This document shows positions 27,660 through 28,056 of a stretch of DNA of 62,770 bases, piece after piece (within the stretch, counting starts at the first letter, position 1; the number at the start of each line of letters is the position of its first letter). The position numbers and the translations under genes are program-made. The notes under the pieces are model-generated. The model ran no database searches. It had not been told where the DNA came from and worked only from the letters and a program-made list of their open reading frames with translations. The DNA is taken from positions 1 through 62,770 of the forward strand of contig CAMNNA010000001.1 of assembly GCA_946545285.1 (NCBI GenBank). Reading direction: 5' to 3'. This DNA is from an uncultured cyanobacterium. Lineage in GTDB: Bacteria; Cyanobacteriota; Vampirovibrionia; Gastranaerophilales; Gastranaerophilaceae.

Positions 27660-28056
27660 CCAAGCAGGTTTCCCGAGCGGAGTCGTTATCACTAACATGA
27701 CAATTGAATAAAATATGCGCCCGTAGCTCAGCTGCCCTGCGGCGAGCTGTGAGACAAGCCGAGCGGACAGCGTCCGCGAGGTGGAGTCGAGGGAAACAGA
27801 GTTGGATTGCGATAAGCAAGCCAAGCAGGTTTCCCGAGCGGAGTCATTATCACTAACATGACAATTGAATAAAATATGCGCCCGTAGCTCAGCTGCCCTG
27901 CGGCGAGCTGTGAGACAAGCCGAGCGGACAGCGTCCGCGAGGTGGAGTCGAGGGAAACAGAGTTGGATTGCGATAAGCAAGCCAAGCAGGTTTCCCGAGC
28001 GGAGTCGTTATCATTAACATGACAATTGAATAAAATATGCGCCCGTAGCTCAGCTG
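27660..28056 (+). repeat. 161-bp tandem repeat (about 2.5 copies), each copy containing the first 18 nt of tRNA-Arg
   Basis: GCGCCCGTAGCTCAGCTG occurs at 27717, 27878 and 28039, an exact 161-nt period. Units 27660-27820 and 27821-27981 differ at 1 position. The third copy runs into the intact tRNA. The repeat body is GC-rich. Confidence 0.95.

Follow-up and report, generated by a model that had tools for sequence, protein, structure and literature searches.

The 62,770-nt stretch analyzed here (the window: contig CAMNNA010000001.1 of assembly GCA_946545285.1, forward strand, from an uncultured member of the Gastranaerophilaceae) contains a single tRNA gene, a tRNA-Arg(ACG) at 28039-28113 on the plus strand (ARAGORN; Rfam RF00005, 65.9 bits). 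The gene lies in a non-coding island (27600-28700, 40-54% G+C in a genome of ~30% G+C) flanked by dxr (26453-27616) and a gene with a Clp_N domain (29157-30524, minus strand). Positions 27660-28056, which end inside the tRNA gene, form a tandem repeat with a period of 161 bp, 2.5 copies, 98% matches, no indels and a score of 780 in Tandem Repeats Finder (TRF), and within it GCGCCCGTAGCTCAGCTG, which is nucleotides 1-18 of the tRNA, occurs at 27717, 27878 and 28039. A first-pass annotation of this DNA had reported three copies of this 18-mer at 161-nt spacing, of which only the last runs on into a tRNA, and TRF, ARAGORN and Rfam bear this out. Here we describe the repeat unit as a conserved, transcribed and structured RNA module that stands ahead of two kinds of stable-RNA gene, tRNA-Arg and transfer-messenger RNA (tmRNA), each time preceded by a copy of that gene's own start.

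The better phasing of the unit is 18-nt fragment, core and tail. Unit 1 (27717-27877, plus strand; 183 bits with R1, a covariance model of the module) begins with the copy of tRNA nucleotides 1-18 (27717-27734), continues into a GC-rich structured core (27735-27853) and ends in an AT-rich tail (27854-27877) that recreates the native pre-tRNA leader. Unit 2 (27878-28038, plus strand; 184 bits) has the same layout, and its tail adjoins the real tRNA. Ahead of both, a partial unit 0 (27660-27716, plus strand) holds only the 3' part of the module, the core end CCAAGCAGGTTTCCCGAGCGGAGTCGTTATCAC and the AT-rich tail; it equals the matching part of units 1 and 2 except for 1 nt, and R1 matches 27566-27716 at 47 bits. 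The duplicated target is longer than the 18-mer itself, since it also takes in ~10-15 nt of native leader upstream of the tRNA's +1. A comparison of the units confirms the differences given in the first-pass annotation, with units 1 and 2 a single base apart (27685 G vs 27846 A) and the partial third copy a single base from unit 1 (27692 C vs T); the recent duplication it proposed agrees with copies that differ by 1 nt. The GC-rich segment that follows the 18-mer (50-54% G+C against ~30% for the genome) and its hairpin GCGGAC-AGC-GTCCGC are likewise present, and the view that an array of 5' tRNA fragments is unusual is supported.

The module is conserved across several Gastranaerophilaceae lineages. 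The informative searches were a metagenome pattern scan for the junction of fragment and segment and a genome scan for a repeat family downstream of the tRNA, and they returned tRNA-Arg(ACG) loci of related uncultured gut and rumen bacteria (numbered with an L below), of which L018 is named Gastranaerophilaceae. The module precedes the tRNA in at least five lineages: the window, L016, L019/L024, L023 and L026. In the latter four we find the same order of 18-mer, GC-rich segment, AT-rich tail and intact tRNA, a spacing of 154-161 bp with a non-coding insert of 136-143 nt between the repeats, and R1 scores of 167-188 bits. The GC-rich core is ~105-120 nt long, and ~105 nt of each unit have no counterpart in the tRNA or in the module-free tRNA-Arg loci that we recovered (L011, L012, L018 and L022). 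Upstream genes and intergenic DNA are unrelated between module loci; neighboring intergenic DNA cannot be aligned, whereas the core is 83% conserved, which is also the mean identity of the module alignment, with invariant stretches GCGAGGTGGAGTCGAGG, CAAGCCGA, AGCAGG and CCGAGCGG. R1 detected no other module copies in the ~236 kb of sequence scanned with it. The 86-nt segment singled out in the first-pass annotation is thus a real entity, which recurs in related genomes with compensatory changes in its hairpins; because it is conserved in these relatives, the array is not a simple slippage repeat around an unconserved segment.

Diverged variants of the module also occur in the gut metagenome of the source study (X1), among contigs that match window positions 27735-27860. 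One variant carries a fragment from a different tRNA-Arg allele (GCGTCCGTAGCTCAGCTG), and a 3-kb contig bears a second one, whose arm-3 hairpin differs (GCGGAC-TTAG-GTCCGC).

The RNAalifold consensus of the module is a four-way junction. Both partners change in seven of its pairs; column shuffles give 2.5 ± 1.3 such pairs (none of 500 attains seven), and controls in which the structure is slid along the alignment give 0-3. Paired cells amount to 90% on the true structure and 31-44% when slid. This covariation is located in three internal arms. Hairpin stems are swapped between lineages (GCGGAC/GTCCGC vs GCGAAC/GTTCGC; TTGG..CCAA vs TCA..TGA vs TCG..CGA; CTTGC/GCAAG vs GTTGTT/AACAAA), and rumen metagenome contigs add further compensatory hairpin variants (GGUGC/GCACC, GCAGAU/AUCUGC, GCAGAC/GUCUGC and CUUGUC/GACAAG). 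One G-U pair is kept in six of six sequences. The fold is strand-specific: sense and antisense folds reach -58.8/-51.2, -56.3/-47.2 and -56.0/-38.3 kcal/mol in three lineages, and unit 1, at -58.8 kcal/mol, has a z-score of -4.3 on the sense strand and -3.1 on the antisense strand. In minimum free energy (MFE) folds, the target-derived piece is for the most part paired with a conserved segment of the core. In a small sample, then, compensatory changes, strand-specific stability and the RNA contigs described below identify the unit as a structured non-coding RNA.

A scan of viral contigs with an invariant 17-mer yielded a second target. In L028, a module core that R1 recognizes at 97 bits lies directly upstream of a tmRNA called by ARAGORN, with a copy of that gene's 5' end ahead of the core; L032, an assembly from a different sample, is arranged in the same way (97-98 bits for the two). 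The tmRNA gene (tag AENNVIYADFGAKRALAA) and the upstream core occupy 11253-11804 of L028 and 2320-2867 of L032, on the minus strand in the latter. The left copy in L032, GGGATGTACTGGTTTCGAC, is a 19-nt repeat of the tmRNA 5' end; the repeats are 160 bp apart, and the insert between them is 143 nt long, as in the window. Two U-to-C differences in the tmRNA type fit the fragment-core pairing of the MFE folds. Because the tmRNA locus carries a piece of the tmRNA rather than of the tRNA, the gene-derived piece switches with the gene while the core is unchanged. Contigs from sheep and bovine gut contain the tail-fragment-core junction at the tmRNA, which indicates tandem units there too, and another contig joins the native upstream flank to the tmRNA body, consistent with an empty site. 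Three loci with homologues of the tmRNA's neighbors (L033-L035) have no tmRNA nearby.

Orthologous loci carry zero, one or two modules. The empty L011 and the occupied L026 are orthologous and have near-identical flanks on both sides, and they differ by one clean gap of 154 bp; the block is bounded by AATA(A/G)TATATGCGCCCGTAGCTCAGCTG. L019 has one unit and L024 two, with flanks common to both. An identical Dxr is encoded on three further, independent long assemblies: L002 agrees with the window, and L001 and L003, which are of the window's own strain, lack exactly 161 bp of it and have a single extra 18-mer where the window has two; both also differ from the window at two upstream single-nucleotide polymorphisms. 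Copy number thus varies between close relatives, as 0/1 (L011/L026) and as 1/2 (L019/L024; L001 and L003 vs L002). In X1, a 139-nt contig spans the tail-fragment-core junction and shows no differences, and it has a depth of 10.5 against 6.6-7.9 for its flanks (~1.5x). The junction contig and the independent assemblies establish that the duplication is real; two full units in some assemblies and one in others reflect either strain variation or the uncertainty of short reads. In the window, L023, L016 and L019 (where it is degenerate), the leftmost fragment is preceded by a partial and more diverged module tail, which suggests that older units decay at the distal end of the array.

Module and tRNA are transcribed together in a single RNA. 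An identical 218-nt RNA contig (27875-28092), without differences from the window, is present in two metatranscriptomes of separate studies; it starts 3 nt ahead of a fragment, crosses the module and extends into the tRNA. The same metatranscriptomes yielded no RNA contigs on dxr, the upstream leader, the tail of unit 0 or the modules downstream of the tRNA. DNA contigs extend to 27866, the limit of the repeat, so the left end of the RNA contig may be a true 5' end; it may also be a branch in the assembly graph.

A native promoter-like box (CTTGAAAA, ~17 nt, TAGGCT; 27589-27625, plus strand) overlaps the last dxr codons and the stop codon and is likely the start of the tRNA-Arg precursor transcript, a function that we infer from the consensus alone. 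The box is conserved upstream of all loci (as CTTGCAA at the tmRNA), and the module itself lacks it. In module-free L011, L012, L018 and L022, a CTTGAAA/CTTGCAA box lies 49-51 nt ahead of the tRNA's +1; in L026, it lies 51 nt ahead of the first fragment, and where an extra module tail intervenes it is found 70-127 nt upstream. From this spacing, the native leader would be roughly 15-20 nt long, and the left fragment of L026 would be the original start of the gene. Each unit also contains a TTG-initiated, Arg/Ala/Ser-rich open reading frame of 50 codons (27704-27856 and 27865-28017, plus strand), which recalls Tpr, the protamine-like product of the E. coli tyrT repeats. In other lineages, indels of one base disrupt the frame, and we reject a coding reading; the open reading frame is probably non-coding.

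The 3' side of the tRNA is also repetitive. A terminator-like 17-bp hairpin (28112-28149, plus strand; inverted repeat I3, 100% complementary) directly follows the gene, and behind it come two modules of ~189-205 bp (28197-28358 and 28385-28545) and a truncated third, all on the plus strand. Each opens with GGAGTTCG, the 5' half of a T-arm, and contains a long hairpin with a covarying closing stem (GAGTTGC/GCAACTC vs GACCTGT/ACAGGTC); each full module ends in AAGAC, a copy of tRNA nucleotides 58-73 and a terminator-like hairpin. The first, D1 (alpha1), consists of GGAGTTCGAGC, the long hairpin with the GAGTTGC/GCAACTC stem, AAGAC, AATCTCTTCGGGCGTA (tRNA nucleotides 58-73) and an 18-bp hairpin, and has orthologous units in L016 and L019. 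The second, D2 (alpha2), has the GACCTGT/ACAGGTC stem, compensatory with respect to D1, its own copy of nucleotides 58-73 and a 19-bp hairpin; it folds at -39.7 kcal/mol (z -4.7), belongs to repeat families D2, D3 and D5, and has an orthologous unit in L012 and cargo-interrupted versions in L018 and L022. The truncated third module (28573-28650) is of the delta type (GGAGTTCGGCGCAAGCGAGCCAAGTG...), shares its opening with complete delta units of L013 and L017, and lacks the tRNA 3' copy. The first-pass annotation had related motifs of the 86-nt segment to these downstream inserts, a likeness that we find at chance level, as the best match (13/17) is reached by 53 of 200 shuffles; a search for complementarity between the 86-nt segment and the downstream leader gave no alignment above threshold.

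Across related loci (L011, L012, L013, L016-L019 and L022), five hairpin types occur in a shared frame, and the downstream stack looks like a cassette array. Single genes sit in the hairpin loops: a Fic/DOC gene in L018 (1867-2472, minus strand), a carbon-nitrogen hydrolase (CN-hydrolase) in L022 (6066-6893, minus strand) and an IS200-like Y1 transposase in L011 (1231-1758, plus strand), the last flanked by hairpins like those of repetitive extragenic palindromes (REP; GGTCGGGTTTTAACCCGAC) and a separate insertion with hairpins of its own. On the minus strand of L018, ~105 bp comprising the tRNA 3' copy, terminator, leader and GGAGTTCG are identical on both sides of a beta-type hairpin module (4316-4390 and 4629-4703), which suggests a very recent insertion or duplication on the 3' side. 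This side resembles classical accretion at attachment (att) sites and the 178-bp repeats of E. coli tyrT. A further sequence, TTCTTCTCAAACCGACTGTTATTTTACA, recurs near tRNA and tmRNA loci (L017:~40-75, L028:~12060-12098, and L022 minus strand ~2050-2085) and is possibly the end of an insertion sequence.

Farther out, a histidine kinase gene lies upstream with dxr, and genes for a DUF1292 protein and RuvX lie downstream with the Clp_N gene. Named homologues of Dxr are assigned to Candidatus Gastranaerophilaceae or 'Cyanobacteria bacterium', and the sequence was found in gut and rumen metagenomes. Relatives with Dxr at ~80% identity do not keep the tRNA beside dxr.

Database searches assigned the upstream module to no known family. 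Rfam gave no match on 27660-28038, either at the gathering threshold or up to an E value of 10 (rtT RNA, RF00391, included), and RF00005 does not score the repeat units; on 27550-29200, a search of Rfam 15 that covered riboswitches, ribozymes, introns and omega and bridge RNAs returned only the tRNA at the gathering threshold. A weak IS605-orfB-I hit (20.8 bits vs a threshold of 94.2, E 0.077) falls on D2 only and not on the upstream module, and was dismissed; the upstream module has no Y1 or TnpB gene and no significant IS605-orfB RNA match that would place it among IS200/IS605 elements. A hammerhead ribozyme was considered for the downstream leader, which has (C/T)TGATGAG and a stem, but by eye C3 and GAA are not conserved between loci. 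We also reject a group I or II intron or a split gene, given the lack of an Rfam match, the small size and the intact tRNA that follows. Phage and plasmid collections contained no match to the module, and five pattern scans of IMG/VR gave L028 as the sole real match; the other IMG/VR hits (L029-L031 and L037-L040) are chance matches in GC-rich coding DNA, as are L014, L015, L020, L021, L025 and L027 chance matches of the genome and metagenome scans. No integrase or cargo was found inside the non-coding insert or among its neighbors, and no larger version of it appeared in the metagenome, genome or viral scans.

From these observations, we consider it probable that the repeat unit is a structured-RNA cassette (the U module) that resides in 5' leaders of stable-RNA genes between two copies of the gene start. 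Its left part, about the last 10-15 nt of native leader plus tRNA-Arg nucleotides 1-18, is a copy of the start of the target; the sense strand of its core folds into a multi-arm structure; and its AT-rich tail restores the native leader ahead of the intact gene. Duplication of the gene start would let the cassette sit in an essential gene without destroying that gene. The window's array of one partial and two full units may have arisen by recent unequal recombination or slippage between direct repeats of 28-75 nt, and contraction by the same route could explain the one-unit assemblies and the empty sites. The RNA would be the product under selection, a long 5' leader driven by the strong tRNA promoter, and RNase P cleavage at the true tRNA 5' end would separate it from the tRNA. 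Because each module begins with an authentic -15 to +18 context, its start may be a second RNase P site, at which cleavage would release a discrete RNA of ~160 nt per unit.

Several points weigh against this proposal. The cut at module starts is pure conjecture on our part, and the proposal leaves unexplained how the cassette arrived at two different genes. A consensus scan finds TTATCA-17-TAAAAT in each tail (9/12), a possible internal promoter; if it is real, co-transcription with the tRNA is not obligatory, and the start would fall inside the fragment. The RNA contigs are assemblies whose ends may be determined by the graph, and carry-over of DNA into them is possible. The alignment comprises just six distinct full sequences, of which five share a target type and the sixth has the other. 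The duplicated 18 nt take part in two helices, both of them invariant and so without covariation, and the fragment-core duplex is no better than that formed by shuffled fragments (455/1000 for the tRNA type, 82/1000 for the tmRNA type), which makes the gene-derived piece no more than a possible part of the fold. Pairing of the core with the 18-19-nt piece in the manner of a guide, which the MFE folds predict but which does no better than shuffles, was accordingly rejected.

The main rival is that the module is a miniature non-autonomous mobile element that inserts ~18-20 nt inside stable-RNA genes, with the direct repeat as its target duplication or att core and the structured RNA (or folded single-stranded DNA) as a transposition intermediate or guide. 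This explanation, which we regard as possible though unlikely, is compatible with the structured leader RNA on the matter of origin; it differs in that mobility, and not a host RNA function, would maintain the module. It accounts for a core found in two unrelated genes at the same relative position (after nucleotide 18 of the tRNA and nucleotide 20 of the tmRNA), for clean presence and absence at orthologous sites, for an insert that measures 143 nt between the repeats in both the window and L028, and for a patchy distribution in which five lineages carry the module and L011, L012, L018 and L022 do not. The MFE pairing of the target piece with the core, with which the two differences of the tmRNA type are compatible, could also be read as its guide, but that pairing is statistically like chance. 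Moreover, no transposase, recombinase or reverse transcriptase lies in or beside any copy, terminal inverted repeats are absent, no scan returned a larger autonomous relative, and a single target switch is documented; recombination between the 28-75-nt repeats suffices to explain loss and gain of units.

A second rival would make the units decayed att scars of integrase-driven islands that used the 5' part of the tRNA in 'reversed orientation', with the 143 nt as leftover arm DNA. Direct repeats of a tRNA or tmRNA segment around foreign DNA are indeed the hallmark of tyrosine integrases, tRNA and tmRNA genes are their classical targets, and the 3' side of this same tRNA has stacked modules that end in nucleotides 58-73, some with Fic, CN-hydrolase or IS200-like transposase genes. 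We nevertheless consider such scars improbable: every copy is equally small and none has an integrase or cargo, and decay would be expected of arm remnants, whereas the core is 83% conserved and has invariant junctions, compensatory stems and a strand-specific fold with conserved G-U pairs. The framing of the array as an odd integration scar in the first-pass annotation does not fit, in view of a complete, conserved module of constant size (154-161 bp) without a recombinase and of its sense-strand covariation, its transcription and its occurrence at the tmRNA with that gene's own 5' piece. Faulty assembly, or slippage without biological meaning, is a very improbable source of the array. Short-read metagenome assemblies do differ by exactly one unit, the units are one base apart, and the depth of the unit contig is just ~1.5x that of its flanks, but raw-assembly contigs from the source study and three independent assemblies all contain the tail-fragment-core junction, the architecture recurs in unrelated samples and species and at the tmRNA, and the module is conserved and structured; the uncertainty is limited to the exact copy number (one vs two full units). 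We give equally little credence to a split tRNA-like RNA whose halves pair in trans, the upstream module supplying the 5' acceptor strand and D-arm and the downstream module the split T-arm and 3' acceptor strand. The upstream module starts with nucleotides 1-18, the downstream modules open with the 5' half of a T-arm and end with nucleotides 58-73, and four of the five lineages with upstream modules also have downstream ones; against this, L023 has upstream modules only and L011, L012, L018 and L022 downstream modules only, no RNA contig lies on the downstream modules, and the two sides show no significant complementarity beyond the 7-bp acceptor stem. These last three explanations rank below the structured leader RNA, and all four are less likely than it.

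A bolder extension, which we offer as doubtful speculation, is that such units are small mobile structured-RNA cassettes that home to the first ~20 nt of stable-RNA genes, perhaps by pairing of RNA with target, and would be the first example of a new class. Their duplication of the gene start would preserve the host gene, and the tRNA-processing enzymes of the host would cut them from the precursor; with the 3'-side hairpin modules that hold single genes, they would make the tRNA-Arg locus a two-sided cassette platform.

Genes for tRNA and tmRNA are classical landing sites of mobile DNA, almost always at their 3' ends and by way of integrases. What differs here is that a small, protein-less and strongly structured RNA module lies at the 5' end of two stable-RNA genes and duplicates the start of each. 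In this uncultured lineage from gut and rumen, a relative of cyanobacteria, the module is conserved and transcribed, and its copy number varies. A functional RNA would represent an undescribed family that rides on tRNA promoters and tRNA processing; if the module is mobile, insertion would follow an undescribed mechanism that counts off ~18-20 nt from the 5' end of its target gene. In both cases, short-read assemblies break at tRNA loci with such arrays, which are also liable to be mis-annotated as pseudo-tRNAs or att sites.

Among known systems, the tyrT-tyrV repeats of E. coli (rtT/RttR RNA and tpr) are similar in being tandem units of ~170 bp within a tRNA operon that carry a terminal piece of the tRNA and are transcribed with it. 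In E. coli K-12 (NC_000913 1286704-1287262, L036), a 178-bp unit is repeated 3.1 times with 95% identity, every copy contains the final 19 nt of tRNA-Tyr, starting at A58, and the region is annotated with the RttR small RNA and Tpr; the tRNA copy in the window's downstream modules also starts at A58. The upstream module agrees with this type in its tandem units with a terminal tRNA piece and in an RNA contig that spans module and tRNA, but its polarity is reversed: the E. coli repeats lie 3' of the tRNA with its 3' end, whereas the module lies 5' with the 5' end. The two share no sequence or Rfam match, and the module is found across species, has covarying stems and occurs also at tmRNA.

Integrase islands at tRNA and tmRNA genes are reportedly flanked by a direct repeat of a gene segment, and those in reversed orientation are said to replace the 5' part of the gene, so that the insert must supply the gene's upstream sequence. 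The module likewise has a direct repeat of its target's 5' end, of 18 nt (28-33 nt with leader) at tRNA-Arg and 19 nt at tmRNA. Unlike such islands, it has no integrase or cargo, its insert is a constant 143 nt, and its RNA-type conservation is unexpected of att arms. In group II introns (through EBS-IBS pairing), the omega RNAs of IscB and TnpB and the bridge RNA of IS110, a structured RNA lies beside or contains a copy or complement of the insertion flank. The module's 5' 18-19 nt, which equal the target and pair with the core in MFE models, are similar, but the module has no protein gene and no Rfam match, and the pairing is not significant; to our knowledge, none of these systems leaves a direct repeat of 18-33 nt.

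Plastid trnF(GAA) arrays in Brassicaceae, Solanaceae and Asteraceae consist of a variable number of partial tRNA copies in tandem, directly upstream of the functional gene and close to its sigma70-type promoter, in a genome derived from a cyanobacterium (PMC3786074). Those copies are 32-73 bp long and comprise tRNA domains only, mostly the anticodon domain, and usually lack acceptor stems (PMC3786074). The window's units, by contrast, are not just tRNA sequence and spacer, although they too vary in copy number: each is mostly a non-tRNA core of ~105 nt and keeps exactly the 5' acceptor strand and half the D-arm. The module thus fails a defining feature of each of the tyrT repeats, the plastid trnF arrays and the reversed-orientation islands, and it is best called, after its nearest kind, a tRNA-operon repeat that carries a tRNA end.

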